The notes beneath the pieces are model-generated. The model was not told the DNA's origin. It ran no database searches and was given only the letters and a program-made list of their open reading frames with translations. From assembly GCA_020137815.1 (NCBI GenBank), contig CM035360.1, positions 1,240,001-1,304,000 of the forward strand: a DNA stretch of 64,000 nt, read 5' to 3'. The position numbers and the translations under genes are program-made. Shown in pieces: positions 19,350-49,091 of the stretch (positions are counted from its first letter, which is position 1; every line of letters starts with the position of its first letter). This DNA is from Hormiphora californensis. Its lineage: Eukaryota > Animalia > Ctenophora.

Positions 19350-22300
19350 CCTGGTGGGACCTATAAAAAAACAATAACGCAAAAACCCCTCGGACCAATT
19401 GATTATTCCTTTGTTTGTCCACAAAAAGGAATAAAGCCCCAAAAACTTTTTAAATTCATTTTTCAGCAAACCCTTTAATTCTTATTTGAATTTAAAACCC
19501 TTTGTAATACTGAAAAAGTTTTGAGAGACGATCGAGGGGGGGGCAAAATGAGAGGGGGGGGTGGCGGGGGGGAAAAAGGGAAAAGGGGGGAGGGGGGCAA
19601 GGGGAGAGAGAAGGGGAAGGGAAAAGGGGAGGAGGATGGGAGGAGGAAGGGGAACCCGGGGGGGGGGGGAGGGCCGAGGGGGGCCCCGGGAAAAGAGGGC
19701 CCGTTTTTTCAAATGCAACCCTTTTTTATAAAATTTTTGAAAAGGGAAATTTTATTGGGGTTTTTCTCGATGTTTTTTTTTTGGGGATCTTTGGGCCCGA
19801 ATATTTTAGCTCGAGATCGGGGGGAAAAAAAAATACAGAGGGGGTTGGGAAAAAAGCAGGGATTTGGGGGTTTTATTTTTATGCAGTTTCCAGAATAGTC
19901 TTTGTAGTTTCTTTGACTTTTGGGTGATAGTATGACAAATTATAGAGCTTTTTTTAAAAGGGGTATTTTAAAAATCAAAAAACTTTTTCATTGCTTTTTC
20001 TCCCCAAAATACTCATGATTTTCTGGCCCGTTTGTGAAATTTTCCTTTATCCCTGTAAAATTAAATCGATTTTATGACCCCAATTTTTAAATCGTTTAAG
20101 GAAAAAGCTTTTTACTTTAAAAAACCCTTTGACATTTCAATTTTTTTTTTTGGGAAATATTTTTACATATTTTGTAGACAGGAAAATTAAAGTATGTAAA
20201 AACTTAGGATGGAATGTTTTTTTTTTTTGGGATAGGGGTTTTGGGCCCCAAAGTCGGAGTATAACAGTAAGATTAACCAACCGGGGGGGGTTCAATTTTT
20301 GACCCCCCTTCTGGGGTTTTGTGGGGAGAGAGGGTTTTGGGGGGAAAAAATTGTTTTTTTTATTCGTTTCTGATAGAAAAAAAGAAAGTTTTATAAACAG
20401 TGGGGCCCCGATTTCCCGGGGGGAAAAGGGGTCCCTTTTTTTTTTTCCCCAAAGCACCCCCGGGTAAATCGGGGGGCCCGGGTTTCCTGGCAGTACCTTG
20501 AAGTATCGGGAAAAAGGTTTTTCAGAAACTTTTGGAGGGTGGGTTTTCCAATTCCTTTACAAATTTTTAACCCAAAAAATTTTTTTTTTTTTTAGAGGGG
20601 GGCGGGGAGAAATAAAGAAAAATTCCCCCGATTCAAATAATATCTCTCCCCCTTTTTTTTTCTTTATTGACAGCACATTTTTTGCTTTTTTTTGAAAACG
20701 GCGGGTCTTTGTGCTTTTCATCCCTCTTGTTTTAAACTTTTAACCCCCCCCCATTTCCCCCCCCAAATTTGGGGGTTTTTTTTTCCCTCTTTAAACCTCC
20801 TTTTTTTTTAACATTCCCCCAAATTCCCCCCCCAAAATTGGGTTTCCCAAATAACATAGCTCCCTTAAAAATATTTACCCCCTTTTCTCCATACCCCACC
20901 CAATGGCTCTTTTCGGAAAAGGTGGGAATTCCCTATGTGGAACTCCCAGCTTGTTTTTCATCTCATTTTGGCGGGGGTTTGGGGGGCAACCGAAAAACAA
21001 TCTGTTTGACCATTGGACTTTATAGGCCCCGAAGCGGGAAAACCTTTGGGTACTACCATGTTTTTTCGACGGGTTTTAAAATACTTTCCCTTGGGTGGAC
21101 AAGTCCCAAAATTGTGTTTTTGGGGAAAGGGGTAATTTAAACAAAATAGGGAATACCCGTGCCCACATCCCTATCTACTCTTTTCCCCAATTTCCCCGGG
21201 AGGGTTTCCCCCTTTAATATCGGGGAAACCTTTGGTTTCGGGTTATTTTTGGTCCCCCGTCTATCTTTTTTTCCTTACGAATTGTATACCCCCCCCCAGC
21301 GGGCCTATAGAAATCCCAAATTTAAAACTAAATCCGGTTTAGAAAAGAAAACCTCTGTAGTACCCCTTTTACTGGGGTGGCAGTGGGTAACAAAACCCCT
21401 TTCTCCTAATATCTTTTTTTCCCGGGGGCCGCTCTCCCCCCCGGGGACCCCCCCTTTTTTCCCCACATCCCTTTTTTTCCCCTTTTCTCAAAACCCCCTT
21501 TAATTCTCTCTCCCCTCTCGCCCTTCCCTCCTTTTCCCCCCTTCGTTTTCTTTTATCTTATTTCCTTCTTGTTTTTTTCTTATTTCTTTTTTTTCTTCTT
21601 GTTTTTTCCCACACTCACCTTACAGCCTGGTGTGAGATCCTATCATAAAAACAGATAACGCAATCCCACTCAGGACCAATTGATTACTTCGCTTGAATTT
21701 TGGGAAATTGAAGAGAATGGAAAGAGAAATTATGGTTCTAGGTTCTTTAGCCTCCCAACACAACTCCATATATGGCTGTGTCCATATAAGGAGTTGTGTT
21801 GTGAGGGGCCCCCGGCCCCCCCCGGGGGGCCTTGGGGCCCCTTTTTAAAACCGGGGCCCCCTTTTTTTTTTTTTTTTTTTTCCCCCCCCCCCCCTCTTTT
21901 TTTCCCCCCCCTTTTCCCCCGGCCCCCCCCTTTTTTCCCCCCCCCCCCCCCGGCCCCCTTTTCCCCCCATTAAAAAAAAAATTTTTTTTCCCCTTCTCCC
22001 CCCCCCCCCCTTTTTTTCCCCCCCCCCTTTTTTTCCCCCCCCCCCCGGGGGGTCCCCCTTTCTCTCTCTCTCTCTTTTTTCTCCCCAAAAAACCCCTTTT
22101 TTTTTTTTTTTTGGGTTTTTTCCCCCTCCCCCCCGGGGGTTCCTTTTTTGGCCCCCTGGGTTTTTTCCCCCTTTTTTTTTTGGGGGGGGCCCCCCCCCCC
22201 CCCTTTTTTTTTTTGGGGGCCCCTTTGGGGGTTTGGGGCCCCCCCCCCTTTTTTCCCCCCCCCCTTTTTTTCCCCTTTTTTTTTTTTCCCCCCCTTTTTT

Positions 22301-23280
22301 TTCCCCCCCCCGGGGTTTCCCTTTCCCCCTTTTTTCCCCGGGGGTCTTTTTTTTGGGGGCCTTTTTTTTTTTTCCCCCCGGGGTTTTTTTCCCCCCCCCT
22401 TTTTTCCCCCCCTTTTTCTTTTCCCCCTTTTTTTTCCCCCCTTTTTGGTACTCCCCCCTTTCCCCCCCCCTTCTTTTTCCCCCCCTTCCCCCCGGGGGGG
22501 TTTCCCCCCCAAAAAAACCCGGGGCCCCGGAAAAACCCCCCGCCCCCCCCCTTTTTCCCCCCCGGGGGATTCCCCGGGGGGGGGGGAAGGGGGGGGGAAA
22601 AAAGGTTTTGGGGGCCCCCCCCCGGGGGGGCGGGGGGCCCCGGGGGGGTTCCCCAACGGGGGGGGGAAAAAAAAAAAAGGTTTTTTTCGCCCCCCAAAAC
22701 CCCCAAAAAAATTTTTTAAAAGGGGGGGGCCCCCCGGGGGGGGGGCCCCCCCTTTTTTTACTGGGGGTTTTTGGGGGGGGGGGCCCAAAAAAGGGGGGCC
22801 CCCCTTTTTTTTTGGGGGCCCCAAAAAAAGGGGGGGGGAAAAAAGGGGGGGGTGGGGGGGGTTTTGGTTTTTTTTTTTAAAAAGGGGGGTTTGGGGGGTT
22901 TGGGGGTTTTGGGGGGGGGGGGGTTTTTTTTTCCCTTTTGGGGAAAACCCCCCCCCCGGGGGGGGTTGGGGGAAGAGGGGGGGGGGGGGGGGGAAAAATT
23001 TTTAAAAAAAAAGGGGAAAAAAAAAAAAAATTTGGGGAAAAAAAGGGGGGGGGGGGGGGGGGGGAAAAAAAAAAAAAAAAAAAAAAAACCCCCCTTTTTC
23101 CTTTTTTTTAAAAAAAAAGTTTTTAAGGGGGGGGGGGGGAAAAATTTATTTTTTTTTTTTTTTTTTTTTAAAAAATTTAAAAAAAAAAAAAAAAACCCCT
23201 TTTTTTTTAAAAATTTTGGCGGGGAAAATTTTTTTTTTTTAAAAAAACCCAAAACCCCCAAAAATTTTTTCCCCCTTTCC
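19350..23280. other. Low-quality homopolymer-inflated sequence (probable assembly artefact)
   Basis: About 19690-21560 is a noisy re-reading of about 17660-19300 with stretched runs; 21810-23270 is almost only G/C/A/T runs. Confidence 0.9.
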
Positions 23281-25758: not shown

Positions 25759-28700
25759 ATGTCACATTTCGGAGAGGTATCCTATGTGGAACTACCTGCT
25801 GTGTTTCATCTCAGTGGCAGGTTTGCAGCCGACACAGATGCTAATAAAGTTAACCTGACCATTGGAGCGTATAGGACCGAAGCTGGAAAACCTTGGGTAC
25901 TACCATGTGTTCGACAGGTAAATCACAGCGCTGGCAGGCGCCCTGGGGTCAATATTCTATATGATTTAGGGAGAGGTTTGGAGCCCGTGACACAGTCCAG
26001 GGTTAATCAACTCAAACTAAATATCAAGTTTGTCCTGAGATATAATTGCCCTTCAATTAAATATCTTCTACCCCGTGCTTCAGGCTGAAAGTATCCTAGC
26101 ATCAGATGAAACTATTAACAAGGAGTACCTCTCCATGTCGGGTCTCCAGTCTCTTTGTGACGCGGCCATGAGGCTGGTGCTGGGTGAGAGTAGTCCTGTG
26201 ATTCAGGAGGATCGAGCTGTAGCGCTCCAGACCCTCAGTGGAACTGGTGCTCTCTACATCTGCTTCCAGGTACTGATGACGTCATAACGCGTGACGTCAT
26301 AACGTGTGACGTCATCTTGTGTGATTTGTGACGATTCAATGCTCAATGTTGATGGAATTGTTCATTCATCTGATTAACTACGAACTTCATTTCATTGTTC
26401 AATATTTTAGTTTAAAGTTCGTTGTGGCCTACCTACTAAGTAACACCCCCCCCCCATTTTCAGTTTATTGCCCAGTTCTAACACCCCCCCCCCCCCCCAT
26501 TTTCAGTTTATTGCCCAGTTCTAACACACCCCCCCCCCCCCATTTTCAGTTTATTACCCAGTTCTAATACCCCCCCCCCCCCATTTTCAGTTTATTGCCC
26601 AGTTCTAATACCCCCCCCCCCCCCATTTTCAGTTTATTACCCAGTTCTAATACCCCCCCCCCCCCCATTTTCAGTTTATTGCCCAGTTCTAACACCCCCC
26701 CCCCCCCCATTTTCAGTTTATTGCCCAGTTCTAACACCCCCCCCCCCCATTTTCAGTTTATTGCCCAGTTCTAACACCCCCCCCCCCATTTTCTGTTTTG
26801 GGACCACCTAACACCCCCCCCCCCTCATTTTCAGTTTATCGCCCAGTTCTATGGCGGTTGTAAAGATATCTATGTCAGTGACCCATCATGGGGTAACCAC
26901 AAGCTGATGATTGATAGGATTCCCGGGGTTAACTTTAAACAGTACCCTTACTACAACTCTCAGGTATGAAATTACTTGTCAATGACATGTAGTACATGAC
27001 AATTAGTATGACAAGTCTTGTCATACTACATGACTGCAATGTCGTGCGACGTGCACGGTTCGGAGAGGGCATTCTTTTGTGAGACAAGAAATCTCCGATT
27101 ACTTTAATTCTCTTGCTGGGAAAAGGGATTTGTGTTTTTTAGCCCAGCTGCTACTTGGGCGATTCTTATCTTCTCGTAAGAGAGGCAATATTCTACCACC
27201 ACACCATATTAAATCATTATGATTTTATGCGAAGGGAGGCTGGTGTCTTATTACCCAAACTCACAAGGTTTGTCGCTATCCCGTTTGGAGGGTATATAAA
27301 GGGGCATGAACCCATCCTAACAGCCCTGTATGGGCGCCGGTGTTAGTTCATAACTACCCGGTAGAAACTGTTGGAGTAGGTCGGGAGTGCATTATAATTA
27401 CCGTATGGCCCAATGTTGCTCCCGTCTTGTTTCCTCAGTTTCAAAATGCGTAAAGGATCCATGATCTTTACAGTTTCAAAATGCACGTAATGGATCCATG
27501 ATCTATACAGCGTTACTACAGTGTTATATAATACAGTGTCATTACAGTTGAACCATGCTCAACTGTGATGTGTTCAGTGTTCCATGAACATGAACATACA
27601 GAGTACAAGTACAGGTACAAATATCAAATACAAATAAAAAATAGGGGAGAACTCTCCCCACCCTTTTTGTTAACCCTATAACCGTTTTCATCTCTCTCCC
27701 GTCTTTTTTCATCGAATCCCTCGCTGCATTCTTCCCCATTAAATTTCCAATTCTAATTAAATCTCCAACTAATATTAGAGATACCTATTTCAATTAAATT
27801 AGTAATTACAATCTCTCTCAGACCATGGCTGTGGATGTTGATGCCATGTGCAAAACTCTGGAGGAGGCTGCTGAGGGTAGTGTAGTTCTACTACACGCTT
27901 GTGCCCACAATCCAACAGGTGTGTACTTCCCTTAGTTAAAGTAACAATCTCACCCTACCCTCTCGCCTAGTTAAAGTAACAATCTCACCCTACCCTCTCG
28001 CCTAGTTAAAGTAACAATCTCACCCTAATCTCTCCCCTAGTTAGAGTAACAAACTCACCCTGATACCACCCCTATTATTATACAGGCATTGATCCAAGTA
28101 GGGACGATTGGGTAAAGATAGCTGCTGTCTGCCAAAAGAAGAATCTTCTGGTTATCTTTGATTTAGCCTACCTCGGTAAGAAGAGTCTTTTTTATCGCAT
28201 GTTGTACCCATTTCTATAGAGAGAGAGAGAGAGAGAGAGTTCTTCCCTACCTAATTCATACTGGCAATATCCCTCTACCTGATCATCGCCCTTCCTTTCG
28301 TTGCTAAGTAACGCGGCACTTGATGACTAAAAAACAACCCAAACTCTAACCCTCCCCTCGTTGCTAGGTTACCAAACTCTAACCCTCCCCTCGTTGCTAG
28401 GTTACCAGACTCTAACCCTCCCCTCGTTGCTAGGTTACCAAACTCTAACCCTCCCCTCGTTGCTAGGTTACCAAACTCTAACTCTCCCCTCGTTGCTAGG
28501 TTACCAAACTCTAACTCTCCCCTCGTTGCTAAGTTACCAGACTCTAACCCTCCCCTCGTTGCTAGGTTACCAAACTCTAACCCTTCCCTCGTTGCTAGGT
28601 TACCAAACTCTAACCCTTCCCTCGTTGCTAGGTTACGCGTCTGGTGACTACAACGAGGATGCATGGAGTATCCGATACTTCGCAGACCTAGGCATGGAGT

Positions 28701-29612
28701 TCTTTGTTTGTCAGAGCTTTGCTAAGATCATGGGACTATACAGTGAGAGAGTTGGAGCGCTCCATTTTGTAGGAGCAACCAGTGAAATTGCACACAAGTG
28801 TCTTAGCCAGGTACAAAATGGGGGATTAGGGCAGGGCTCGCCACAATACCCACTTCTCATTACTTACAGGATCATTCCTCAGCTTCCTAAATCATGTTTA
28901 AATCCTGTTTAAAATCATGTTTAAATCATGTTAAAAACCTGTTTTTAACCCCCCTACCAGATGAAGATTATTGTCCGGTCCATCTACTCCAATCCTCCCT
29001 CTCATGGAGCCAGGATTGCCAGTCTGTGCCTAAATAACCGGGATCTGAGAATAGAATGGGAGGAATGCTTGAAGGAGATGCATGCTAGGTAAGTCACCGA
29101 TGGGAGGCCGTCATTTCTTGAGTTGAGGTTGAGGTCCTGGCCAAGAGGCTTTTCTCTTGGTTTCCATCAATAACTCTTCCTCAGGATCCGAAGAGCCAGG
29201 ACTTACCTTCACACGGCGCTGAAGATGGCAAACGTGCCAGGAAATTGGGATCATATCCTCTCTCAAAATGGAATGTTCTCTTACACCGGTGAGTAGTCGT
29301 GTTTTGGTGTTGAGAGGCCTGCATACTTTATATACCCGTGTCTTGTCTCAACCCTTACTTAACAAGCCTGCTCTTGATTCTTTGTCAACTTCATTCTTCA
29401 AGTGGGAAATAGGAAAACGATAAAATTTTGATTGAATTCTAATATGATCTGTTTCAGGTTTGACGAAGGCCCAGTGTGAAGTGTTGATTGAAAAACATCA
29501 CATTTATCTCCTAAAATCTGGTCGAATCAGTATGTGTGGTGTCACTGAAAGTAATGCTAAATACGTCGCTGAGTCCTTCAAGGATGCCATCGAAACGGCC
29601 AAGGAGAACTAA
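25759..29612 (+). CDS. GOT1: Aspartate aminotransferase, cytosolic type (GOT1-like), 9 exons
   Basis: Exons 25759-25917, 26084-26269, 26835-26963, 27822-27918, 28086-28175, 28632-28810, 28961-29088, 29185-29288, 29458-29612; motifs KVNLTIGAYRT, QTLSGTGAL, DPSWGNH, LLHACAHNPTG, FDLAYLGYASG, SFAKIMGLYSERVG (PLP lysine), RSIYSNPP, GMFSYTGL, SGRISMCG; no transit peptide. Confidence 0.95.
26440..26850 (+). repeat. About 41-bp tandem array of the intron 2/exon 3 junction
   Basis: Unit CTAA(C/T)A-polyC-ATTTTCAG|TTTATTGCCCAGTT; AG ends at 26463, 26506, 26549, 26590, 26632, 26674, 26716, 26756, then one degenerate unit, then the real site at 26834. Confidence 0.95.
27930..28060 (+). repeat. About 36-bp intronic minisatellite, about 4 copies
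   Basis: TAGTTAAAGTAACAATCTCACCCTACCCTCTCGCC repeated in GOT1 intron 4. Confidence 0.9.
28339..28636 (+). repeat. 33-bp tandem array of the intron 5/exon 6 junction
   Basis: Unit ACTCTAACCCTCCCCTCGTTGCTAG|GTTACCAA; AG ends at 28367, 28400, 28433, 28466, 28499, (28532 mutated), 28565, 28598, and the real site at 28631. Confidence 0.95.
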
Positions 29613-30358
29613 AAACAATCCAATGTTTGGTTGAGTTTTTATACGAAGAACTTTTAGATTTTTGTGTGTAAAGTATGTTTAACTAAATAATGGCTATGTG
29701 TTACCGTTCATTCTAGGACGATTCCGGCGTAGCAGGGGTAATTTATTCATATTGTCAATGTCTTGTTCTGTAGATGTCACCATGTTTTTTCAATTTTAAA
29801 ACACCCTATAAAAGCGTTTTATTTTTCAAATCGTCAGGATATTTGTTAGGGGATGATGAGGTTTATCGCTTGTGGAGCAGGACCATCCGATGACAGATCA
29901 CCGTGAATAAATTAGCTGGGCCTCGTTGTTGGTGGTTTCAAGCGCGCGCGTTTGAATTGCGCGTTACATAATGAAAACTTGCGCGTTCGCGCGGGATAAA
30001 ATAAGGACAAAAGTCGCGTTGGATGACGTAACCTTTGGTGATGAGAAGTTTGCCTCTTGACACAGCCCATTGGCTTACTACTTCCGTGGGCAATTACCGG
30101 CCATGTGGAACTCCAATTTCGATACGACGTATGCCCAAGTTGGTTGCTAAGCACTATCGATTATGCTCTGTTGTTGGTCAGGTTGATACCGAAAGATTCT
30201 AAGTTTAAACTTACTTACAGCAGCTTTTGCCTTTCATACATGACGAATTATCTGACGTAACGGTAAATCATCAGCTCTTTTAAAATCCTCAAACGCACGA
30301 GACTCATTTCTTGCTTGTTTGAATCTTGAATAATCGTAATATCACTTTTTGCTTGTTA

Positions 30359-31083
30359 GGGTAGAAAGGGGTAAAATGGCACACTTTCTAACGTTTTAGG
30401 TTCTAAAATACTCAATTTATACAGCAAGAAGAAAAAGAATTATATAGGCTATCCAATGAAACGTTTTCCTTTCAGACGAGCTAAATTTTAAAATCTGAAA
30501 GTTTTATTTAATAGCTTAATTAATCAATTCAAAAAGTTTGGTAGGGCTTTTTTTGGAAATTTTGCACTGGGGTAAAATGGTCCAGCCAATAGCATTGCTC
30601 GATTTTTATCACGTGCCTGGTGTTGTTAGAGCACTGGGGTAAAATGGTCCATGTTATCTTCAGTAATTTCTGTTCTGCTGGACCATTTTACCCCAGTGTG
30701 CTGGACCATTTTACCCCAGTTGGTATCACGTGGTATTGGAGGCTCGATTTCATTGGTCCCAGGGTGAACCATTTTACCCCAGCGAGGGTGAACCATTTTA
30801 CCCCAGTTTGACTAATTTGACAATTTAATCAACTTAATAGTGGGTTTTTTGAAAAATTTTTATACCAAGTTTTAGAAGGATAAAAACCCTAACTGGCAGT
30901 TTTTGCAAAATTAAAATCGGCCAACTCAAACAGAAATTACAGCAGTTTTAAAGCAAAAATTCGGAACAGAACGAGCAGGTCTCCGCTGGAGAAAAAGTCA
31001 CGTGACTACATGTAATAACTAGGACCATTTTACCCCATACATGTGCCATTTTACCCCGTGTGCCATTTTACCCCTTTCTACCC
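30359..31083. mobile_element. pogo/Tc1-type MITE
   Basis: TIR GGGTAGAAAGGGGTAAAATGGCACAC; TA on both flanks; internal GGGGTAAAATGG motifs. Confidence 0.9.
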
Positions 31084-31159
31084 TAAATTCATCTTTGCTT
31101 TGCCCTTAGCTACAATCCTACTGTGAATGGTTCGGGTCCCATAGATATGACGACTATTG

Positions 31160-31910
31160 ATGGCTCTATCAGTCGATACAACGCCCGCTAAACATGTCAC
31201 GGTCCTCCGTAACGGCGACAACAAGTATGAGGGTCGCAAGTTTGTTGTCAGCAAGCGCCGTTACCGAACCTTTGACTCCCTTCTCTCCGACATAACGACT
31301 CAAATCAGCGCTCCTTTTGGCGCTGTTCGACGCCTGTACACCCCGAAAGGGAGTCGCCAACTCCGATCTATCGACGATGTAGAAGGAGGGGCGACATACG
31401 TGGCAGGAGGCACCGAGAGATTCAAACGGATCGAGTAAGTTTTGAAGTTTTGGAACTCATATCTTTATTAGAAACACAAACTTAACTTGGAAGTACTACT
31501 CCAAATGGTAACATTAGTAACATTTCCTTTCAGTCTTGTTTCAGTTACAGTCCCAGCAAGGAAGCGCTTCGAAACTGGGGACTTAACTCATTACATAGGG
31601 TATGTTACAGCCATCTATATCTCTAACAAATAGTCGATAATTAATGGCCTTTCGGAGAGATCTATAGGTTATAACTAAACCGTAAAAGCTAAACGAGAGT
31701 AACTATTAGAATAGCCTACCTTTTAGTAGAGATTAGAGAACATGGTACTGTAGCTAAAGTGAGAGTGGTTCATCGTTTTGTCTACTTATAATGGTTTACC
31801 GGTTTGGCATTGAGCTCAAATGTTGCCATGGCAACAAAATAGCTGCTATACTAATCTTACTCCCTCTCTTTCTTCCGCAAACTACTATGTTGTTCTCTCT
31901 ATTTATATCC

Positions 31911-31980
<70 letters not shown>

Positions 31981-33663
31981 TCTCTCTCTCCACCCTATCT
32001 TTCTCTCTTTCTCTCTCCGCATCACTGTTTATTCTATTTATTCTAAACTCTAGTTACAACTTGGGTTCGTTGGCAATTATGTACTGTATTTTACCAAGTC
32101 GATGTCCTTAAGTTGTCCCTCTCTTTTTTGTCTCTCTTCATCTTGCTATCTCTAAGTGCTCATTAACTATTCCATTGGAACAATTGCTGGCGAGTGGCGA
32201 CTTACTCTGCTTCAGTTCTTTTTTCTAACGAGCTCTCATTAATTCTAAGATCATACTATCGATAATTTGGTTGACGCTTCTAACTTCATAGTCTCTTACT
32301 GTCAAGTTATTTCTTCAGTCCTCTTCCATAATATAATGGTTCATATCTTCCACAAAGTTCTATAGAATTCCAATCAAGATCATGCTTGTCGCACGTGTCT
32401 ACTTTTCAATTCTTTTGTTCCTTTCCCCGTCATTCTCTTTTCCTCCATCGCTAAATTCCTCGAATTCTCCATGTGACAACTGTCTTCCGTGCAACTGTCT
32501 ATGTCCTATGACGCAGGTCTATCGGTTTTTATCCACCCCCTCTCTATCTCTCCTTCTTTCTGTATCCTTTTCTCCTTGTCTCTATTGAGTGATATGACAC
32601 AATTACTTGGGCTCCCTAATCACCTCACCGATTAGTCCAATCGAAACTTGCTTGCTACCCCATGGAGCTCCCTCTTGCTCCCTCTCTCGCCCCTCTCTTC
32701 TCTCACATTCACGTACTACATGAGTAGTAATAGTAGGAAGCGATCCATCAAGCTCAGTGCGAGGTCTAGGTGGATCATGTTGATCAATCGAAACGTGGAT
32801 AAATCTTCTAAAGGGGTATGTTTTGATCTTGACTTTATATTTTTGCCTGCCTTTTTACCTTGACTCTCATTGTGCTTCGGCCCGGTTCGGAGAGGGCAGT
32901 CTTTTGTGAGACAACCTTATTATTACGATGTTTTGCCTCCCTAGTAACCCCATTGTCTGGCACAATATAGCTAACGCCCACCACTCTGCTATTGTTCTCC
33001 CCTTTTGACCACTTAGAGTGCATTTGTTCTACGTCAAATGGCCTGAGCGTCCCCAAACTGCCAAATTTGTGTGTTTGTCTTGGAGTTGTGTAACCATGGA
33101 AACAAATTATACACCCCAGCTTCTTGGACCCGCTATCATTCTCTCGCCCCCTCTTTCTCTGCGATATCGTATTCTCCCAAGGCCTTGTTATTCCTATTCA
33201 CGTCCCCATGGTTACCAGTCTCGAACACACAAACTCAGAAATGAGGCAGCGATTTACTTTCTCTTAGTGTGAGAAAGTGAGATGGAGAGAAAGAGAGAGA
33301 TAGAAAGAGTGAGAGAGAGAGAGAGTGAGAGAGAGAGAGAGAGATAGAAAGAGTGAGAGAGAGAGTGAGAGAGAGAAAGAGTGAAATCAGAAATATTAAA
33401 TGTACTGAGAAGAACGAGAGGGAGAGAGAGAGAGATGGAGGGAGGGAGGAAGAGAGAGAGATAAAAAAGATAGAGAGAGAGGGATAAATGGTGAATAAAG
33501 CTAAGATAGAGCTACTGAGTTGGCTAGTAAATCGTTGTGAGAAGTGGGTAAAAAGAGCCAGGAGACTGCTCCACCAGCCCTAGTAGGAGCCAATAGTGAT
33601 CGGAATTCAATTAGGAATCATCTGTTACAGTTCCAGAATACAGAATACAGAATATCCCTTTCA

Positions 33664-33759
<96 letters not shown>

Positions 33760-36026
33760 TATTTCTCTCTCCCCCAGTCCCTTCGCTTATTGAATATGCC
33801 ACCCCGTGATTCCCTGAAACTTGTTACCATTACTGTGTCGCCCTGTCTTAAAACCCCATTATCATGATTGTCGGGGGGAGGGCTTTTAGTAACTTCCAAC
33901 TAGGACTTCCAAACTTTTTAACATACCGATCTAATAGAGAAATAACAGTTCCTCTTTTGCCCTAATGGCCTCCTTTTATAATTTCCCTAACAAAGAACCT
34001 TCTATATCCTAAAATCCCTCTATTTCAGCCTGGTTTCCTGGCAGACGATCCGCCGCCCTTGGTCCTTCCCAGAAAAAGCAGAAAGTATGCCCAAAGATCG
34101 GCCCAGTTCCATAAAATTGGCCAACCAGTACAATTTACGTAAGTTTTCCGATCAAATAAAACGAGTTAGTTTTAGAAAAGTGGGTTTGTACAATTTAATT
34201 ACAACATTGTGATATGAATACAATTCATACATTACATAGTGAATTTGTACAGAGTTCGGTTTGGTTTGTTGACTCAAATCGAGTCATTTATGCCTTCTTG
34301 GCGGTCTTCTTGGCGGTCTTCTTGGCGGTCTTCTTGGCAGCAGCCTTCTTGGGTTTGGCTACGGAGGCTCCCTTCTTAGCAGCGGATCCAGCAGCACCGG
34401 CTCCCTTTTTGGCGGCTCCAGCGGCAGCACCGGCTCCCTTCTTGGCGGCTCCAGCGGCCTTGGAAGCGCCCTTCTTGGCAGCCTTGGAGACGGGGTTGTT
34501 GACAGCGGCCTTAGAGACGGGGTTGTTGACGGCGACGTTCTTAGTTTTCTTGGCGACCTTAGTAACACCCTTGGTCAGGGGGTTGTCCTTGAGAATGTTG
34601 GCATCATCGGGGATTGGTGCGGAGTAAACAGCCAGGGCTACCAGAGCCAGTAACACAAATCGGAACATAGTTGTGAGTGGTAGTACACACCGAGAGAAAA
34701 GGTAACTGAAGGTTGGAAAAACTAACTGACTGAATAGTCTCCTTTGCTCTCTCTGCGTTTAGAAGTCTCCCGCACACCCAACCATCTAGATACAAGTGAC
34801 GTCATTCTGTAGTGACAGAGATGAGGCTGTGTCAAAAAGGATAAACGGGGTATTTAGGATAGTTTCATATCAATGAAGTTGATATCTTTTTTGAAGCGCT
34901 CTCTCCAGAGGATTGGTTTCCGATTTATAATCGGGCCCGATTTGTAACCGCTACCCTTGCGGGTAGTAAGAGCGTAAGCCAAGTAACTCATATACAATCA
35001 GCTCCCGTGTTTGCTTTTAGAGGGTAGAGAGATAGATAGTTAGAAGGGAGTAGTTACAGTGAAGTAATTTTGATATGATCTCCTTCTGGTGATCAACACA
35101 CACACGCCCTCTGTACAACAGTTTAATGGGGAATCTCACACATAAACGGGCAGAACTCGGTTAAGGAGAGATCAATTATTCAATTAGTATTCTGAATAAT
35201 GAGTTCAGAGCAAGAATTAAATAGGGAAGAAAATCGAAAAATACTGGGTTTGACCGGGAATTCAACCAGGGACCTCCAGATAGACATGCTCGGAGCTATA
35301 AACCACTAAGCTACCAAATTACTTTTTGGTTGAACGATATTCGGTAAATGCTACCCGAAAAAAAAGCTACCAGACCATGTTTTCCCAACTTATGCAGATC
35401 TGCAAAATAATATTCCTGTGGAGTGTGGAATCTAGATTTGTGATTCAGCTAGCTTATCTCCAGTAAACTAACACTCTTACATTCTCTTTTTCAGGGTGTT
35501 CAAAAATGGTTTACCAAGTGAAAAGGGATCAAAGTTTTTGCTAAAAGCCCGGGAAATGAAGTCTTATGAAACGGTTAGTGTTGGGGTGTGTAAGTGTCGG
35601 TTTGTGTTACTGTTAGTTTGAGGGTGTGTTAGTTTTGGGATGTGTTTATTAGTTTTGGGGTGTGCTATTCTGTATGATCTGGTCCCTATCATGGGGGTGG
35701 GGATACTACTACAAGTGTTTAGTCTCTTTTCCCCTTCGTAGTATTATAATACTTCTTTGATGTAGAACCCATTATGAAATAAAATGCGGTGACCGCTGTG
35801 CTTCACAACTACTATACTTCTGTCTCTTTAAATACACTGCAAATGACCCATTACCTCTTTTTCCTCAGGTGTTATCGATAATTTCCTTTAAAATTCGTCT
35901 TGTGGAGGGGGCCGTGAGAAAGTAAGTAAAAGTAAAAAGGTAGGACATATGTCCTGGAAAAAGTGATAAAGCTCAGAGATGATGAAACTCATCTGTCTAT
36001 CTCCACACTGTGTCGCCATAGCAACT

Positions 36027-36105
<79 letters not shown>

Positions 36106-36121
36106 GAGAGAGAGAGAGAAG

Positions 36122-36198
<77 letters not shown>

Positions 36199-39100
36199 TG
36201 AGAGAGAGAAAGAGAGAGAGCGAGAGAGAGAGAGAGAGAGAGATATGCTAGGAAAATGAGAGGGAGAGAGATTCTTGCTGGGGGTAGGAGCTTAGACCGC
36301 TATTATCCTCTCTGCTTGAGAGCTTCTCAACTTATAGGAACAAGGAGTATAGTGAGGAAAGATAGATAGATAGATAAATGGAGAGAGAGAGAAAAGTAGA
36401 TAGATAGGCCTAACTCCCATCACGGTAACCAACACACTCTCATTGGAACCTAAACTGTTATTCCTAATTTTTCAACAAAAAAAGAACGGTCTTGGCCAAA
36501 GGAATTCAAAAATATTCAGTGTTCTTCATGTTGAATTCAAAGTATTGTCTTTCAAATCCATTTATCCCTCACCTTCTACATACTGCACCAAACATTCTAT
36601 ACAATTCACATTTTCGGTATCGGTTTGATTTTTAGGTCTTTAGGACGCACCCATTATTATTTCCCAAAACGTATTCTCTCACTTCATCTAGGACTCCATG
36701 TCAATATATCAACTCGTCATGATATAATTTCACGATATCAGATATATATTAAGATCACGTCGAGTCCTCCATTCTCTATATTAATTATCCTGCTTGATAT
36801 TATTCAATATATCTCTCGTGCACGAGAAATATCTAGAAAGAAATAGAGATTGGCATTTTCGATACTTGTCACTACTTCCCCGCTAGGTCTGTTTTGATCA
36901 AGGTGTTCTCTTACTCGAGAAAGAAAGAGAGAAATGAGAAGATAGATCGAGATAGAGAGATGGAGAGATAGAGATATGATAGATAGATCCAGGATCGGGG
37001 ATCCTATAGTCTCTCACTATTTCTTCTTTTTTTCTCTCGATCCCCTTCTCTGTCTAAAATTTCCACTAAACCCCTGCTCTAACTATGGGGCTCATTTAGT
37101 CCAAAAACCAATTAAATAAATTAGTTTGGATGCCCGGGCCCATTTGGTGTCACGGGGGTAAAACCTTTAGGCTACTGTCATAAATAATGGCATATCTCGT
37201 TTCTTCTTTTTTTTCTCGATCCTCTTCTCTGTCTAAAATTTCCACTAAACCCCTGCTCTAACTATGGGGCTCATTTAACACACGTCACACATTTAGAGGG
37301 CTGGCTAACTAAGTTATAGTCCTACAAAGGGAGGGGTGTTTTAATTTGGTTGCCTACAAATCATTGACCACTAGTTAAGTATAGTACCTACCTAGTCACT
37401 AGTCAGTAGTCAGTGAGTAAAATGAGTGAATGTAGCCTTGGCAACCCGGTACCTTTTTCTGACCCCCCTCCCCCCTCGGCTAATATTATTTTATTATCGA
37501 TAAGACATATTCTTTTATGTGCATTTTAGTTGTACTCAACATTATTATCATGTAGGTACCCACCTTTTCCAAGTTTTGTCCTCTAGTACCAGAACAGCAT
37601 GAGAGTTCAGAAAACACAAGACTCCGACCTCCGTTTTTTCCACTTCGTCTTTTCACGGTGTTTTTCTCAAACTAGGAAATTGATGTTCTCCTCTACACAG
37701 ACCACAGTTTCACAAATCTGTGTAGGAAATCGAGAGGGGGTTGACAACTTAACTCAAAACTTGTTCAGCTGACTTCATTTCTGACCGCTGCAATTTTCCC
37801 CACTCTGTTCACTCTCGGTCTACTTGACGTAACGCGCGGCCCCTTATTTTCTAGAGTTGACCGCTGGAAATTGCGCAGTGGTTTGCTGCGCGCGCGGCAC
37901 CCATCCATCACGCTGGTCAATCTCAACAAGCAACACACACATATCACGTGATGAGTCATAAATCATGTGTGTGTGAGAGAAACTCCTAACAAGCAAAATA
38001 TAATATGTGACAAACACATCTCTCTCTTGACAGGCTGTTCACGTTGGATGGTGGTGTGATAGTTGGGGCCGATGAAATCACGGATGGGGGTCAGTATGTG
38101 GCCGTTGGACATCGCCGGTTTGTTCCAGGAGCGTATGGGCACGAGGCAGCCGGACCGGCTAGAGTTGCACCACAAAAGTTAGTAGTTGGGTCTTGGGACA
38201 TATGGTAGCTAGGACCTAGGTATTTGAAGGGATAGCTTAGCTGACAGCTGTAGTCTGTTTACTGATAAGTGAGAGAAAGGAACCAATTTCTAAAGGTTTT
38301 ACCCGGTTTCTAATTTACCGCCTTTTTCAGATTACCGGCAGTCAGGCGATTTAAAAATCCAACGCATGCATCGGTAGGTTGCTAAATATCATCTCTCCGA
38401 TTTTCACTTCAATGCTTCACCTATTGGAACTATTTCTCAGGGCATGAAGTCGTTACCTCAAAGATTTATTAACTTAGCAATCCCCTCTCTTCCCTCCAGC
38501 CTCGAACGAAATCAAACCCACTGCCCGGAATTCAAAACGGCAAGCCCCCAGGCAACAAGAAAAGTACCCGCTCGGAGAAGGATTCCCCTGCTCCAATCAA
38601 AGGTATAGATGATGAAGATGAAGAAGAAGTGGTTGTAGTTTCTAGGGGTAGTCAGGCTCAAATTGTTCCTGTAGTAGCGGAGGTGGGTGCCCGACCTCTC
38701 ATTCTACCCGCGAGTAGCAGCCCCCTGGCAGTTGAACAACGAGTTGAGATGTTCTCGGCTACACCAGAGTCTACTTCGGTGGTTGGGAAAGAACCGTCAA
38801 CTACCCCCACTCCACGGACCCCCAAAACAGGCTCACTTGCTCCGATTGAGGTTCTAGTGACCCCTGAAGCACAACTCCTAGACACCCCAGCTGCAGAAGA
38901 TGAGGATCTCTACACACCGTTCCCTGTCGAGGGGGAGGAGGATGAAGAGGATGAGGAGGAGACGCCAAGCCCTGCCGTCCTTACCTTCAAACTATCAGAA
39001 GAGCCGGTGCAGGACACACCAGGTCTATCTTCCAATGAGTTCCTAACACCGGGTATCCAGGATACTCCCTTCTCCTCCAACGCTCTGTCCTCCAACGCTC

Positions 39101-40789
39101 TCTCTTCTGGAGCCCTGGACACCCCACACGTCCAGGCATCTAACGCTCTCTCATCTGGAGCCCTGGACACCCTATACGTCCAGGACACCCCGGACGTCCA
39201 GAATTCTGAGGGAAACACTCCGCCGAGTGAAGGACACGATGATATGGGAGGGTATACACCGTTTGTGGAAGAAGGTGACACACTTTGCATGGATCCGCAT
39301 GTTTTATATTTAGTGTCTCAAGTGTTCTTTCTATCTTTTGTGGGGACAACGGGAACCGGGCAGAGTTCGAAAGATGGCAAACATTCCGGAGTTGAAGGGG
39401 CGGCCTAAAATACCTGGAATTTCTGTGTGAAGCTGTGTCTTGTGCTTGTTTTGTTCAAACCCTTTTTGTTATAGGGGATCGAACAAGGCAATCTTGTGCA
39501 GCTGTGAAACTTGCTGTTTAGTATCATCATTATATTGTCTGTGAATTGTCTGCGTTATTTCTTCAGTGACTGTGAATTGTAAAAGACGCACAGTTTCCCC
39601 CGAATTATTCACAACTATTATTTGTTTTTCAGAAGTTGAAGATGACGAGATTTCAAGGGAGGAAGTCCAGGTTAAAAAGAAGGGATCTCCGGCAAAATCT
39701 ACTGCCGAACAGGGCGTCACTCCAGGTATAAAGAAGAGAGAGAGAGAGAGAGAGAAAGCACGCTAAAAGACCAATGTGCTGATGCCATTTTTGACACCTT
39801 CACAGTCATTACCCATTCTTTTTATCTCCAACGATCAGTAGTGCTATTGCATCATGCACAGGCCATACAACCCTGACGGTGGTAGCTACACAACACGTGA
39901 TAGGTCGATACATGTCTTTTTGTCCTGTTTTCACGACTTCACGTGATCTGATACCATTGCACTTGTCAACCGCTGCAACAATATATCACACAGTATCGCT
40001 CCAATCATGCAGTAGTCATCCCAAAATCACACCACCGTCACACCACATTGCTGCACAATCACACCGCCGTCACACCGCATTACCCCACATACCATAATCA
40101 CACCGCCATCACACCACCGGCTACTTACCACATTACGTGTTGCTAACCCGCTGTGCTAAGATCGTGAGGTGAAGGCTGTCCCGAACAAGAGCACGTTAAG
40201 CCGAGACCCGCCTAACAAAAAGAGCACTACAGATCAACAAGACACAGTGTTCAACGCCACGGGGAAACCAGGAGGAGCGAGTGGGACCGAGGGACAGTTC
40301 CTGATGGACAATGTTAATGATGGTAAGCAATGGGTTTAGCACATTTTATTTCAGCGTTCTTTTCTTTGTTTCCGAAAATTACAGTTCTATAGTTTTATTT
40401 TACTGATCCAGCTGGTGAGAGGTGTTTTCAGATTTTGTTGTACAATATCACCACCTGTTTCCCTAATTAATTACCGATTTTCTCTCATCCCCCCTCTCTC
40501 CCCTCAGATAAGGTTGTAAATGGAAATGAAGCGGAGGAAGAAGATGAAGTAGAAGAAGACAAAAGTAAGTGACCAATGATCTGGAAATTTTGACAATTGT
40601 CAGATTGGGTAGGCTGCAGCTGAGTGCTGATCCCATTTTAAATTGTTGAATAAGGGGTGGAGAACCCCCAGGCTAAATTTAGAAACTCTACAGCTCATAA
40701 TAACGTCCCTCCCTCCCCTAGACATTAAAGAAGATAAACCAGTAGAACTTCAACAAGCGGAGGAAGTGGTCGAAGAAGAGGACCACTAA
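31160..40789 (+). CDS. DCDC2: Doublecortin-domain protein, DCDC2-like
   Basis: Exons 31160-31434, 31545-31599, 34029-34138, 35495-35573, 35869-35921, 38034-38177, 38331-38373, 38500-38602, 39633-39725, 40161-40322, 40508-40564, 40722-40789; DCX1 LRNGDNKYEG..APFGAVRRLYTP..YVAGGTERF; DCX2 VFKNG..GAVRKLFTLDG..YVAVG; C-terminus KPVELQQAEEVVEEED. Confidence 0.9.
31822..31835. promoter_or_regulatory. Perfect RFX X-box
   Basis: GTTGCCATGGCAAC palindrome in DCDC2 intron 2. Confidence 0.5.
34288..34668 (-). CDS. Nested single-exon gene for a secreted Lys/Ala-rich 126-aa protein
   Basis: ATG to TAA; signal peptide MFRFVLLALVALAVYS; strong GCC/AAG codon bias; AAKKG and KKTA repeats; lies within DCDC2 intron 3. 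Confidence 0.85.
   Translation of the reverse strand: MFRFVLLALVALAVYSAPIPDDANILKDNPLTKGVTKVAKKTKNVAVNNPVSKAAVNNPVSKAAKKGASKAAGAAKKGAGAAAGAAKKGAGAAGSAAKKGASVAKPKKAAAKKTAKKTAKKTAKKA
35246..35340 (-). mobile_element. tRNA-derived SINE head or tRNA pseudogene
   Basis: A-box TAGCTTAGTGG and degenerate B-box GGTTGAATTCC; the anticodon arm is not canonical. Confidence 0.6.
37021..37277 (+). repeat. About 77-bp direct repeat, 180 bp apart
   Basis: TTCTTCTTTTTTT..CTAACTATGGGGCTCATTTA at 37021 and 37201. Confidence 0.8.
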
Positions 40790-41223
40790 ATAGAGCGATA
40801 TATATCACCTACTCTCTCTTCCCAAAGACATTTTCCTTTCCTGAGACTCTGATATATATTTTCCAGACTGTGTGAGAGCCAGAGTTTTTAACTTTTTGAC
40901 ACAGAAAGATCTTGTTTTGGACGCGAGTGAAGCTTTTAGTTGCTAAATGTGTGTATTATGTGCTATATCAGAAGGCTGGTAAAAGAGATATTGAGATCTA
41001 GAGAAATTATTTTATTCAGTTAAATATCATCTGTCTGGCGCCGTTAGACCCTGTTTTTACAGGGTGTACAGACATACAATCGCCAGGAAGGATGTATCAT
41101 AGTTAGGCATTTAGATTTGGGCAGGAGTTTTATTTTGGCACACGCATCTGTTAATATTTTCCAAGATTGTACATGTAGAGTGAGTCGAGAATTCAGTTGC
41201 TTTCCGCAGATCATTCGTCTAAT

Positions 41224-42013
41224 TAGTAGAGTCGATAACTACATCGACCTCTCCCAATTGTTCCAGTTTTTGTCACATCTGTTTGGAGCCTCGACACGAC
41301 CTCTAAACAGGTGTTACTTTTTCACTAACTGTTTTCATCTTGGTGTAATCAGCATTTGAAATGTTGCTGATCATAACAAAAACCTAACTATTTTTTTTCA
41401 ACTTGGGGTAAAACCATGGGTGTCAAAAGTTAGCTCTAGGTCCCCTGAGTAACCATCCGGAGACTCTAAGAGATATTTCAAGCCGTTCTCGCGTAATCAT
41501 TAATCCCGGTGGAGAAAAAAATACAATGCAGACGTACGTGAGCGCTGGCAGGCTGTTTACATGTTATTGTATGTCTCTCACTCTCTCTGGAAAAACCGCA
41601 CGTGCGGTTGCGCCGCGCGAGATAACTCTTTCTCAAGGGGGAGAAAAGAGAGAGACGCACATTAACGTTATACAAAGTTGAGGTTGTAGGCAATTGCACG
41701 TACGTCCATACTCAAATATGTGCTCTATCGGGATTAATGATTACAGGAGAACGGTTTGAAATATCTCTTAGAGTCTCCGGATTGTTACTCAGGGGACCTA
41801 GAGCTAACTTTTGACACCCATGGTTTTACCCCAAGTTGAAAAAAAATAGTTAGGTTTTTGTTATGATCAGCAACATTTCAAATGCTGATTACACCAAGAT
41901 GAAAACAGTTTGTGAAAAAGTAGCACCTGTTTAGAGGTCGTGTCGAGGCTCCAAACAGATGTGATAAAAACTGGAACAATTGGGAGAGGTCGATGTAGTT
42001 ATCGACTCTACTA
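41224..42013. mobile_element. Non-autonomous DNA transposon, Academ-like
   Basis: About 255-bp TIRs with TAG..CTA termini; 3-bp flank AAT on both sides (a TA-TSD reading is also possible). Confidence 0.85.
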
Positions 42014-42992
42014 AATTTTGTCTCTTAAATTATCGATACGATAAAAGGGGTAGCACCTGGAGCAGGCAAGATAATGACGGATTTGTCTTTTAAATTCTGA
42101 ATTATAATCGTAGTGGACCATCACGATCACGTGACTATTATCGGCCACCAGGTGCGAAATAGAGCTAGAAAGGTGCGGAAAGGGACATATAAAAAAGGGG
42201 ACAATGATTTTATAAAAGCGTTCCATTATTTTATCATCACCTTTCGGCTTTCAGTGATCTGTTATAGCAGTGCTTTCCATCTCGCTCTCAACCAGATACC
42301 TCCCCCTCTCTAAACGTTTTGTCGTCTCTCTCTCTTTCTCTCTCTCTCTAGCAATGGATCGCTCCACCTGATCCCCTTCATTTCATCAAATAGTTATCAC
42401 TGCCTTGTTGTTATTTAGTGTTGCATAACCGCATCGATATTATTGATAATCCAGATACATGTGACCCGCCTAGATATATCTGGTAGGACCCCGGCCTGCC
42501 TCATTCAGCAATTCTTGGTAGACTCATTTTTTGCTCCATGATTCCGCCCAAATCGCTGCCGTCCTAGGTTTAGAAAACCCAGCTATTTGATACGGTTTGT
42601 ACTCCCTCACATGACACTGATCGCAACAGCTGTTGTGTTGTTCAAGCTGCGAGGAGACAGATGTACATTGTACATTTGTGTATAGTCTGCGCGCGAAATT
42701 ACTGACAGGCATAATAAGGATGTCGTCGCGCGTGACGCTAACAACTCATTATGGGTCTGGTAGTGCGACAAATGTATTGTCTCACTTTTACATTTGTGGA
42801 ATCTGCTGCAACACACCAGAATTCTCAAGTATAACATGCCCAGTGTTAACCTCATGGGTGGTAATTGCTGAAAATCATTTTCCCATTTCCCACAATTTCA
42901 CCACCCCAAATAATTATATCTGACTCTCAATTCACTAACTAGAAGTCAGCTTGACCCCAAGACCAGGAGATAGGAAGGGAGTTTGGCTGTCA

Positions 42993-45867
42993 ATGATTAC
43001 ATTGGTCCTGCTGGTGTTGGTAACTGTTGGCCGGGTCCAAGGTCGTATACCCCATCCCACTGACTGCTCAAGGGGACACAACCAGGTAACCTCCATATTC
43101 TTGTTTATACCAACTCCCTTTCACACAGGGCCCCCAAACCTACTGCGGTGTCCAGTATAACCAACACACCAACACACCCTCCCTGCAGGTTCAAACCTAT
43201 TGTGGTGTCCAGTATAACACCCACCTTGCAGGTTCAAACCTACTGTGGTGTCCAGTATAACACCCCCACCTTGCAGGTTCAAACCTACTGCGGTGTCCAG
43301 TATAACCAACACCCCAACCCTGCAGGTTCAAACCTACTGCGGTGTCCAGTATAACCAACACCCCATACCTGCAGGTTCAAACCTATTGCGGTGTCAGGTT
43401 CCTTTGCAAGTGTGTCAAGAACGTATCGACATACTATGACGACCTAAACCCCACCTGTGCTTACGAGCTGAATATCCATGAAAAGCTGACTACATTCGTC
43501 CCCTTTGTCCTGAATGAAGAAGAAGCCCTGAAATCCACACCTGACGTTGATCTGGAGGAAAATGAAACAGAGGAAGAGGAAGATATTTGGGATCTGATCC
43601 CTAACCCACCCGTTTATCTGGATGATGCTGAGCCAAAAAGACCAAGTAACTACCACATTACTACCACAATCACTCACTGCCCTCACCATGGCAACCGCGA
43701 AAAGAACAAGTAGAATGATGATTGTATCATAGTCGGACGCCGGTTGACTGTGTTACTGAGGGGGGTAGTTTTTAGATTGTTGAAACATACCGTAAGTTGG
43801 GGTAACTTTGTACCACTTTTTAGCATTCTCCTAAAATTACTCCTTGCTAGAACCACACTCGAAAATTTTTGAACCAAATAATCCCGTTCCAGACCCAGTA
43901 CACCAGATATAACTAGTGAAATTTTTGGTCCCCTCTCATTTGATTAGATTAATTAACACGTATTTTAGTGTAAGTGGGGTTTTAGGGCATGGGGTAACTT
44001 TGGAATGAGGGTGGGGTAACTTTGGACACATTTTGCAATGATAAATAGATGAACATAAAATGTTTAGGTTTTCGATATGAGCGTTTGTAGAGTTGCCTTA
44101 GACCCTCTCTGACTTGTTTAGGACCATATGACTAAGATTCAGCCCAATCCACACCCGTTTTCATCCATATATTCGCTAAGGTAGTGAAAAAACGAGGATT
44201 TGGTCTATTTTATGGAGCTAAATCACAAACAACCGTCCTAAAACACATCAACCTTCAATAATTTGGGGGTCCCTCATCCACCCTCTAGCTTGGTAGGTGG
44301 TATTGGCCCGCTAGGCGGCAGTATTAGTTCTTTTTACTGAATCGGTCTGCCAGGAAGTGGCCGAACACTTATGGGTACTGGCTAAATAAAGGAGTTTTGG
44401 TGCCTGTGTTCCTGCATAGATTGTCCACAAGAACTAATAGACTCGCCTAGAGGGTCAATACCATCTACCAAGCTACAGAATGGATGAGGGACCCCACATT
44501 ATTGAAGTTTGATGGGTTTCAGGTCGGATTTCTATGAATTAGCTCCATGAAGTAGAACTAATTCTGGTTTATTTACTACCTTAGCGAATAGATCGATGAA
44601 AATGGGCATGAATCGGGCTAAATCTTGGTCAGATGGTTCTAAACAAGTCAGAGAGGGTTTAAGGCAACTCTGCAGACATCAAAAGTTCAAAACATGTAGT
44701 ATGGGGTAACTTTGGCACCCCGTCCAAAGTTACCCCAAAATTCAAAATATGGTGGGGTAACATTAGCCAACCCAATTAGTCTCAATTAAAGTAATTGGTC
44801 GGATTTGAAAAATGGTGCCCCGAATTATTTGATCGAAACCCTTCCACTCTATGGAGCAAACTTGATTCGATCATTTGCCCGGTCAGATCTATGGTACCCA
44901 TTTTGATTTGAACATTTTTAGCGATTTTGACATCAATTATGTTTGACCCTAATTAGGAGCTAATTAGCATAGATTTGGAAAAATAATTGTACCGTTAGTT
45001 AGACATTTGTGGGTCAATTACTTGTACACCCAAAAAGTTTTCCAAATCTCTCGTTATCTGTTGGTAATTTTGGACTAAATCCAAATTTTGAAAGTGTCCA
45101 AAGTTACCCTGCAAAACAAAGTTACCCCAACTTACGGTATATCCTAGATACTAGATAGAAAACCCTATTTCAGTGGACCCGGACACCTTTGGGTGTGGGT
45201 GGGAGTGGGACGAGGATCTGTTGACTGTCCGACTGGCAAAGATCAAATCTCGGAATGGGCGCTGGTTGAAAGTGGGCCTACCTGGGAATATTATTGCAGT
45301 ACTCAAGGCTGTCCACTACCGCAGTAAGTGTGCAGTAGCTCTACTTTATTTTTGTCTTCTCACACTCAATTTTTATCCTAATCGTTTTGTCTTCTTTTTA
45401 CTGCAGTAAAATTTCGAGTAATCAAAACTCTGCATATTTTTGTTTATACATCGGATATTTGTTAACTAATCTCCACATTTTCTCTCCCAATTAGCAAACG
45501 GTGAGTGCCAGTATATTAACCAGCTACCATTCGATGATTGCCTTGAGCCAGCAACACCTGGACAGACCCGGGACAGAGATGAAGACCTCTTATACTTCCA
45601 AGTTAGAATATCTGATTGGAGGCTGAGAGATACAGTTATCAATACGATAGACCAAGATTACAGGATGTATTATCAAAGAAAGAGTTCCTCATGTTATAAA
45701 GGCCAAAAGGTAAGCTGTGCGACACGCAGTAGATATATATTGTCTGTCTGAGCGCACTTTTTTGAGATTTAAGACGGCGCCAGACAGTACATGTTCATTA
45801 ACGTTTCTAGGTAGATTCCTCTCCTATATATAATACTACTACTATCACCTACCAATCTCTCTTTTGA
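42993..45867 (+). CDS. Uncharacterised secreted Cys-containing protein, 5 exons
   Basis: Exons 42993-43085, 43375-43645, 45174-45323, 45495-45709, 45811-45867 join in phase; signal peptide MITLVLLVLVTVGRVQG; no family recognised; the last exon is tentative. Confidence 0.7.
43135..43395 (+). repeat. 43-49-bp tandem array of the intron 1/exon 2 junction
   Basis: Unit TATAAC..CCC..TGCAG|GTTCAAACCTAYTGYGGTGTC; AG ends at 43188, 43231, 43276, 43325, and the real site at 43374. Confidence 0.93.
43790..45137. mobile_element. pogo-like non-autonomous transposon in intron
   Basis: TIR CCGTAAGTTGGGGTAACTTTG; TA on both flanks; internal GGGGTAACTTTG motifs and an internal inverted block. Confidence 0.9.

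Positions 45868-46689: not shown

Positions 46690-49091
<2,402 letters not shown>

Follow-up and report, generated by a model that had tools for sequence, protein, structure and literature searches.

In amphioxus, minisatellites known as mirages consist of tandem duplications of either intron-exon boundary, which are unstable in length and leave splicing undisturbed (PMC3087553, PMC3902484). The hosts named in these accounts are the globin genes BflGb6 and BflGb9 (PMC3087553) and the genes for troponin C and PGBD5 (PMC3902484), with Adh3 given as the first case by PMC3087553, which also relates that the boundary copies are excluded from homogenisation and that many copies carry AG/GT signals. 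We describe here three arrays that very probably belong to the same class, in a stretch of 64,000 nucleotides from the ctenophore Hormiphora californensis (assembly GCA_020137815.1, contig CM035360.1, positions 1,240,001 to 1,304,000 of the forward strand; hereafter the window, in which all positions are counted). Each array repeats a 3' splice junction in tandem, such that a series of decoy acceptors precedes the true one, and at each array use of the last, exon-attached acceptor is supported.

Comparable structures have been described on the donor side of human introns, where the first monomer of a minisatellite lies across the exon-intron boundary in F7 IVS7 (37 bp), IFI6-16, CBS, LMNB2 and PDGF; according to the same source, F7 uses the exon-attached site only, while 6-16 and CBS are exceptions in using two pseudo-sites as well (PMC1557585). 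Tandem duplication is also the basis of the Rogers model, in which introns are gained or expanded by duplication across AG|GT proto-splice sites (PMC3265369, PMC4974935, PMC2891723). The preliminary description of the present locus had known of no earlier account of such arrays; the amphioxus mirages provide one. For ctenophores, our literature search found no report of junction repeats.

Anatomy of the arrays

All three arrays are head-to-tail repeats of minisatellite-sized units, as resolved by Tandem Repeats Finder (TRF) across the window: array 1 with a period of 42, 9.8 copies and 91% matches, array 2 with a period of 33, 9.0 copies and 96% matches without indels, and array 3 with a period of 49, 5.4 copies and 81% matches or, in an alternative call at 43171-43395, 4.9 copies and 90%. 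The unit in each case runs from a branch-point-like CTAAC/CTAAT or ATAAC through a C/T-rich tract to YAG and on into the first bases of the next exon (17 nt in array 1, 5 nt in array 2 and 21 nt in array 3), and hence spans the intron-exon boundary, joining splice signal to exon bases. Only the last copy continues into the coding exon, the start of which is fixed by the spliced model for arrays 1 and 2 and by orthologues for array 3. In all these respects, and in the absence of sequence similarity among the three, the preliminary description is borne out. It had also assigned the arrays to unrelated genes, which applies to array 3 but not to arrays 1 and 2, both of which reside in one aspartate aminotransferase gene (Table 1).

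The units are local and not dispersed in the window. Allowing up to three mismatches, the exon-start motifs gave 9, 9 and 6 matches, each confined to its own array, while 0 of 100 shuffles had any match, and the motif search, which bears on a transposon-derived, introner-like source of the units as far as the window reaches, found no array unit outside its own array anywhere in the 64 kb. An exact scan of metagenome contigs for the unit-to-unit junction of array 2 gave 0 matches, and an Rfam scan of the window gave 0 matches at the gathering score. A common origin of the three units was considered and rejected, the plus-strand scores between them being reached by 57, 61 and 38 of 300 shuffles.

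Array 1 is built of units of 39-43 nt, in which the exon-like TTTATTRCCCAGTTCTAA is followed by CTAAC/T, a run of 10-15 C and ATTTTCAG. Eight intact TTTTCAG decoys (G of AG at 26463, 26506, 26549, 26590, 26632, 26674, 26716 and 26756) are each followed by TTTATTRCCCAGTTCTAA, which agrees with the exon start over 17 nt apart from one mismatch. A decayed copy (26796-26834 region), in which CAG has become CTG (G at 26795), stands directly before the true acceptor, whose AG ends at 26834. The intron being of phase 0, a transcript spliced at one of the decoys would encode F I A Q F before an in-frame TAA stop.

Array 2 has a 33-nt unit, GTTAC followed by CAAACTCTAACCCTCCCCTCGTTGCTAG, and contains seven intact CTAG|GTTAC decoys (G of AG at 28367, 28400, 28433, 28466, 28499, 28565 and 28598) together with one copy in which TAG is changed to TAA (CTAA, at 28532); the AG of the true acceptor ends at 28631. 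This array is open in frame and free of stops throughout, and decoy use would add 11 residues (YQTLTLPSLLG) per unit between FDLAYLG and YASGD. Upstream of it lies an older, decayed copy of the junction between intron 5 and exon 6, recognised by local alignment to 28614-28653 with a score of 36, whereas the best of 1000 shuffles scored 23. Taken alone, the exon part of this alignment is not significant, 226 of 1000 shuffles scoring as high; the relic probably carries some 22 nt resembling exon 6, suggestive of an earlier duplication of greater length.

Array 3 fills most of the 289-nt first intron of gene 3, the exon 1 of which ends CAG|GTAACC in phase 0. Its units of 43, 45, 49 and 49 nt comprise the 21-nt exon start GTTCAAACCTAYTGYGGTGTC, then CAGTATAAC, a C/A-rich tract and CTGCAG. 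There are four full decoy copies, with exon-like starts at 43189, 43232, 43277 and 43326, that is 186, 143, 98 and 49 nt upstream of the true exon start, and one partial copy at 43132; decoy use would lead to an in-frame TAA (43303-43305) or a frameshift. The start of exon 2 was set where it is because the orthologues P0012 and P0013 read GHNQ|VQTYCGVQF at this junction; at the next they read PKRPTN|GECQ.

The preliminary description had listed three arrays; a fourth, found by TRF (35 nt x 3.7), takes up most of the 167-nt intron 4 of the aminotransferase gene. Its units consist of GTAAC, a pyrimidine tract and TAG, giving four decoy TAGs, and carry no exon bases; the last, diverged unit reaches the true acceptor TATACAG. 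The arrays of introns 4 and 5 have in common a 15-nt pyrimidine core, TCTNACCCTNCCCTC, at 13 of 15 bases. A match of this quality was equalled by 5 of 600 composition-matched windows, and the two-unit version of the test is biased by repeat doubling; the kinship is weak, and the core could reflect common descent or convergence.

Table 1. Positions of the two host genes and of the repeat arrays within them
Feature	Position in window	Strand	Remarks and basis
Aspartate aminotransferase gene	25759..29612	+	9 exons; tblastn of P0001, spliced model
Aminotransferase exons 1-5	25759-25917, 26084-26269, 26835-26963, 27822-27918, 28086-28175	+	
Aminotransferase exons 6-9	28632-28810, 28961-29088, 29185-29288, 29458-29612	+	
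Array 1	26446..26851	+	3' end of intron 2; exon 3 starts 26835; intron phase 0; TRF
Fourth array	27933..28061	+	intron 4; exon starts 28086; TRF
Decayed older copy of intron 5/exon 6 junction	28289..28332	+	upstream of array 2; local alignment
Array 2	28339..28636	+	3' end of intron 5; exon 6 starts 28632; intron phase 1; TRF
Gene 3 exon 1	42993..43085	+	start codon, predicted signal peptide MITLVLLVLVTVGRVQG...GHNQ; open reading frame, tblastn of P0012/P0013
Array 3	43135..43395	+	intron 1 of gene 3; TRF
Gene 3 exon 2	43375..43645	+	VQTYCGVRFLCKC...PKRP; donor A|GTAACT; orthologues
Gene 3 further exons	~45176-45370 and from 45497	+	orthologues P0012, P0013

For the aminotransferase gene, P0001, a protein of 408 aa, has 100% identity to the 63-residue exon translation used as query, and the spliced model likewise gives a product of 408 aa, which differs from P0007 at two residues; the eight introns (166, 565, 858, 167, 456, 150, 96 and 169 nt) are all GT-AG. 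Exon 2 matches Pfam PF00155, and the 90% cluster of the enzyme includes a member named Pleurobrachia_bachei by EukProt. Partial copies of exon 1 occur 5-7 kb upstream of the gene (16420-16551, 18722-18859 and 20928-21041, plus strand), with residue identities of 82% and 45%, the first copy reaching the codons up to the donor. P0006, a EukProt Pleurobrachia_bachei model of 682 aa, combines such upstream exon 1 pieces, along with exons 6-8 in a second copy, in a single protein and is therefore suspect, being probably a mis-prediction or based on a duplicated assembly.

Gene 3 (42993-45715, plus strand) encodes a secreted, cysteine-containing product for which an exhaustive search of 1.84 billion protein representatives returned four relatives (E <= 0.001). 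A word-based search for relatives of 61-196 aa returned none, the product has no Pfam family match, and the family is probably restricted to ctenophores. Its third exon is present in P0013 and missing from P0012.

Choice of acceptor

The proteins P0001, P0007, P0008 and P0009, of 408 aa each, come from contigs of 1372-1522 nt, and since the gene spans 3854 nt these contigs are spliced. All four read ...CFQ|FIDQFY... and ...LAYLG|YASGD..., which are the last-acceptor junctions of arrays 1 and 2, and none of five more distant relatives (406-420 aa) has an insertion at either site. Relatives of the enzyme were also found at 68 loci in metagenome contigs; the best three (69-76% identity) are uninterrupted, mRNA-like matches of 1518-1559 nt from other species, and none carries an array, so that they were left aside. 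It is the four transcript-sized contigs that support use of the last acceptor at arrays 1 and 2. At array 3 the support comes from orthology, the junction predicted from the last acceptor being present in both full-length orthologues, which come from related species.

The preliminary description had proposed a mutational process focused on acceptors, together with either an unusual choice of the distal site, through exon definition or resplicing, or a splicing rheostat tuned by copy number. That the distal site is taken agrees with the four contigs and the two orthologues; that this should be unusual does not stand, since amphioxus mirages and the human donor-side cases behave alike. As for resplicing, the bases that follow the AG are TTTATT in array 1, GTTACC in array 2 and GTTCAA in array 3. 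Recursive-splicing ratchet points place an AG directly before a regenerated strong donor (GTRAGT-like). Array 1 regenerates no GT at all and arrays 2 and 3 yield poor donors, which makes resplicing unlikely, and recursive splicing was rejected on these grounds of donor quality.

Array 2 constitutes a clean natural experiment on acceptor choice, in that near-identical, in-frame and stop-free decoys precede a site that is the only one represented in the assembled transcripts. Between its nearest decoy and the true site there is no difference from -33 to +5, and the information that decides between them would therefore have to reside in the body of the exon or in position.

Origin and persistence of the arrays

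We hold it to be very probable that the arrays are mirage-type minisatellites, likely created by slippage or unequal exchange and likely tolerated since the acceptor chosen in splicing is the last one, to which the exon is attached. A segment reaching from the end of an intron into the beginning of the following exon would have been duplicated in tandem, in a genome rich in tandem repeats. The last copy would prevail by exon definition, as the sole copy with a real exon body and a downstream donor behind it; the decoys offer 5-21 exon bases and then pyrimidine-rich intron. Transcripts from rare use of a decoy in array 1 or 3 would carry premature stops, and nonsense-mediated decay would clear them. 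On this account the host introns, which minus their arrays would measure about 70-200 nt, would have grown to 167-565 nt; the array-free introns of the aminotransferase gene (1, 6, 7 and 8) are of similar size, at 96-169 nt.

The condition of the copies is consistent with ordinary repeat turnover. Interior copies are homogenised and edge copies have decayed, as seen in the array 1 copy next to the true site, the relic to the left of array 2 and, in array 3, the first copy, which is partial. In the same array the decoys retain the CAG (Gln) codon found in the orthologues where the real exon now has AGG (Arg), and therefore predate that change. Tandem repeats make up 13.2% of the window, which contains 24 non-overlapping arrays of period 15 or more, and the Hormiphora genome is reported to be 13% tandem repeat (PMC8527503).

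Several observations weigh against the explanation by slippage and tolerance. Since its decoys are in frame and free of stops, decay cannot police array 2, and the near-perfect match of its nearest decoy to the true site has to be met by the exon-body or positional information postulated above. The assembled contigs reveal dominant isoforms only, and protein searches for relatives did not find a gene 3 transcript of the same species. In addition, purely random placement is not established, for three acceptors against no donor among the six intragenic arrays nominally exceeds a uniform founder model. That model allowed founder duplications to fall uniformly over the collapsed introns and to include up to 25 exon bases; it gives each array a probability of 4-25% of spanning the acceptor, and an expectation of 0.55-0.90 of six, so that three or more of six has P = 0.012-0.047, a nominal and post hoc value because the window was picked for the pattern. 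The split of three acceptors to zero donors is by itself not significant.

This excess leaves some room for an acceptor-focused mutational bias, in which the C-rich pyrimidine tracts at 3' splice sites are slippage-prone seeds and minisatellites begin more often at acceptors. Such a bias would refine the origin of the arrays and is compatible with their being neutral afterwards. On the sense strand the four arrays in these introns are indeed rich in C (0.37-0.48) and poor in G (0.07-0.18), the C runs of array 1 vary in length, and the intron 4 array is likewise made of acceptor-like units. However, the sample amounts to six arrays and two genes, in amphioxus both boundaries are affected (PMC3087553), and in ancestral introns of about 70-200 nt a duplication of 33-49 nt would reach the exon edge in 10-25% of cases anyway; we consider the bias a possible but rather unlikely contributor.

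A functional role is far less plausible. The arrays might be conceived as a splicing rheostat tuned by copy number, as a source of regulated isoforms, or as internal targets for spliced-leader trans-splicing. Pleurobrachiid ctenophores have spliced-leader trans-splicing. Trans-spliced leaders are reported from Hormiphora itself (PMC8527503), array 2 is open in frame, and the branch-point-like motif, pyrimidine tract and AG are intact in 8 of 9, 7 of 8 and 4 of 5 upstream copies; yet young copies are expected to keep intact signals without selection, the three units share no sequence, and a decoy junction occurs in 0 of the 4 transcript-sized enzyme contigs. When 44 translated residues of array 2 plus 24 exon residues were used as a query for the in-frame isoform, P0001 alone was matched, the alignment covering the exon residues (41% of the query), a weak negative as the forms searched are dominant, assembled ones. 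An insertion of 11 residues at this point would lie within the conserved cofactor-binding core of the enzyme. We therefore regard a functional device as highly improbable. A composite of the two preceding proposals is improbable too: acceptor-directed duplication in ctenophores, seeded by C-rich tracts, would generate decoy arrays of variable copy number that sequester the factors acting at 3' splice sites or else draw in trans-spliced leaders, and repeat number would tune the output of the host gene.

We give equally little credence to the arrays, or their copy numbers, being stutter of the assembler. There is a precedent in the amphioxus draft genome, where one mirage is reported to have been misassembled (PMC3087553), and at ~21860-23170 the window does include an odd block made up of long runs of C, T, G and A. 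The units, though, differ from one another by ordered point variants and in length, measuring 39-43 nt in array 1 and, in array 3, 43, 45, 49 and 49 nt; there are also decayed copies and a relic, which stutter of a single unit would not give; and one architecture recurs in four separate arrays with different units.

Other features of the window and relation to described systems

In the block at ~21860-23170, homopolymer-like runs alternate (C10T7, T/C, followed by runs of G and of A) and every frame is open; the block is a genuine island of low complexity or else a product of faulty assembly or basecalling. Elsewhere, a 21-nt minisatellite of about 31 copies at 56454-57136 (plus strand) faces about 12 reverse-complement copies at 57268-57517, and the pair is flanked by inverted 9-mers (56148-56172 and 57801-57825), making a large foldback-like structure. 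A second inverted pair comprises a T-rich 10-nt array, TTGATCTTTT, at 14633-14852 and, directly after it, its A-rich complement, AAAAAATCAA, at 14863-15032. At 50693-51407 a 177-nt unit is repeated 4.0 times with 95% matches, in a region open on both strands (273 aa on the minus strand) that has no Pfam match. Neighbouring genes include a doublecortin-domain exon at 31151-31435 (plus strand; PF03607, E 6e-22) and a rhodopsin-family receptor at 46693-47550 (minus strand; PF00001, E 4e-10).

Series of acceptors within one intron are a feature that the arrays share with recursive-splicing ratchet points and with NAGNAG acceptors. Ratchet points differ in the strong donor that follows the AG, for which arrays 1-3 have no equivalent. 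NAGNAG acceptors are 3 nt apart; here the distance is 33-49 nt and each acceptor has its own branch-point-like motif. With the Rogers model, as set out in the reports cited above, the arrays share a tandem duplication in which exon sequence ends up inside an intron. They depart from it in that no new intron results; instead, existing GT-AG introns, all needed for the 408-aa frame, have been lengthened.

The human donor-side minisatellites are closer, being in effect a mirror image with donors in the place of acceptors: identical splice sites are reiterated within the intron and, as a rule in the account given, the exon-attached copy is used (PMC1557585). For F7 the mechanism has been tested with minigenes and described as 5'-to-3' oriented scanning (PMC1557585), whereas the mechanism that we propose on the acceptor side is a putative one.

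The closest counterparts are the amphioxus mirages. As described, these likewise have boundary-spanning tandem units, retained splice signals, an authentic copy at the edge of the array, diverged edge copies and a normal mRNA, and the mirage of BflGb6 joins the 3' end of an intron to the 5' part of exon 2 in the same arrangement as here (PMC3087553). The units of the present arrays, at 33-49 nt, fall within the 10-72 bp given for Adh3 and are shorter than the 150-160 bp of the globin mirages. The window has acceptors only, where the amphioxus reports describe both boundaries, and the arrays are known from one assembled sequence, where length polymorphism and somatic instability are reported for the Adh3 mirage. 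Such arrays can mislead gene predictors and assemblers. The host here is a comb jelly and not a cephalochordate, which extends mirage junction minisatellites from lancelets to a ctenophore and fits a general by-product of tandem-repeat turnover in short-intron animal genomes rather than an oddity of one lineage.

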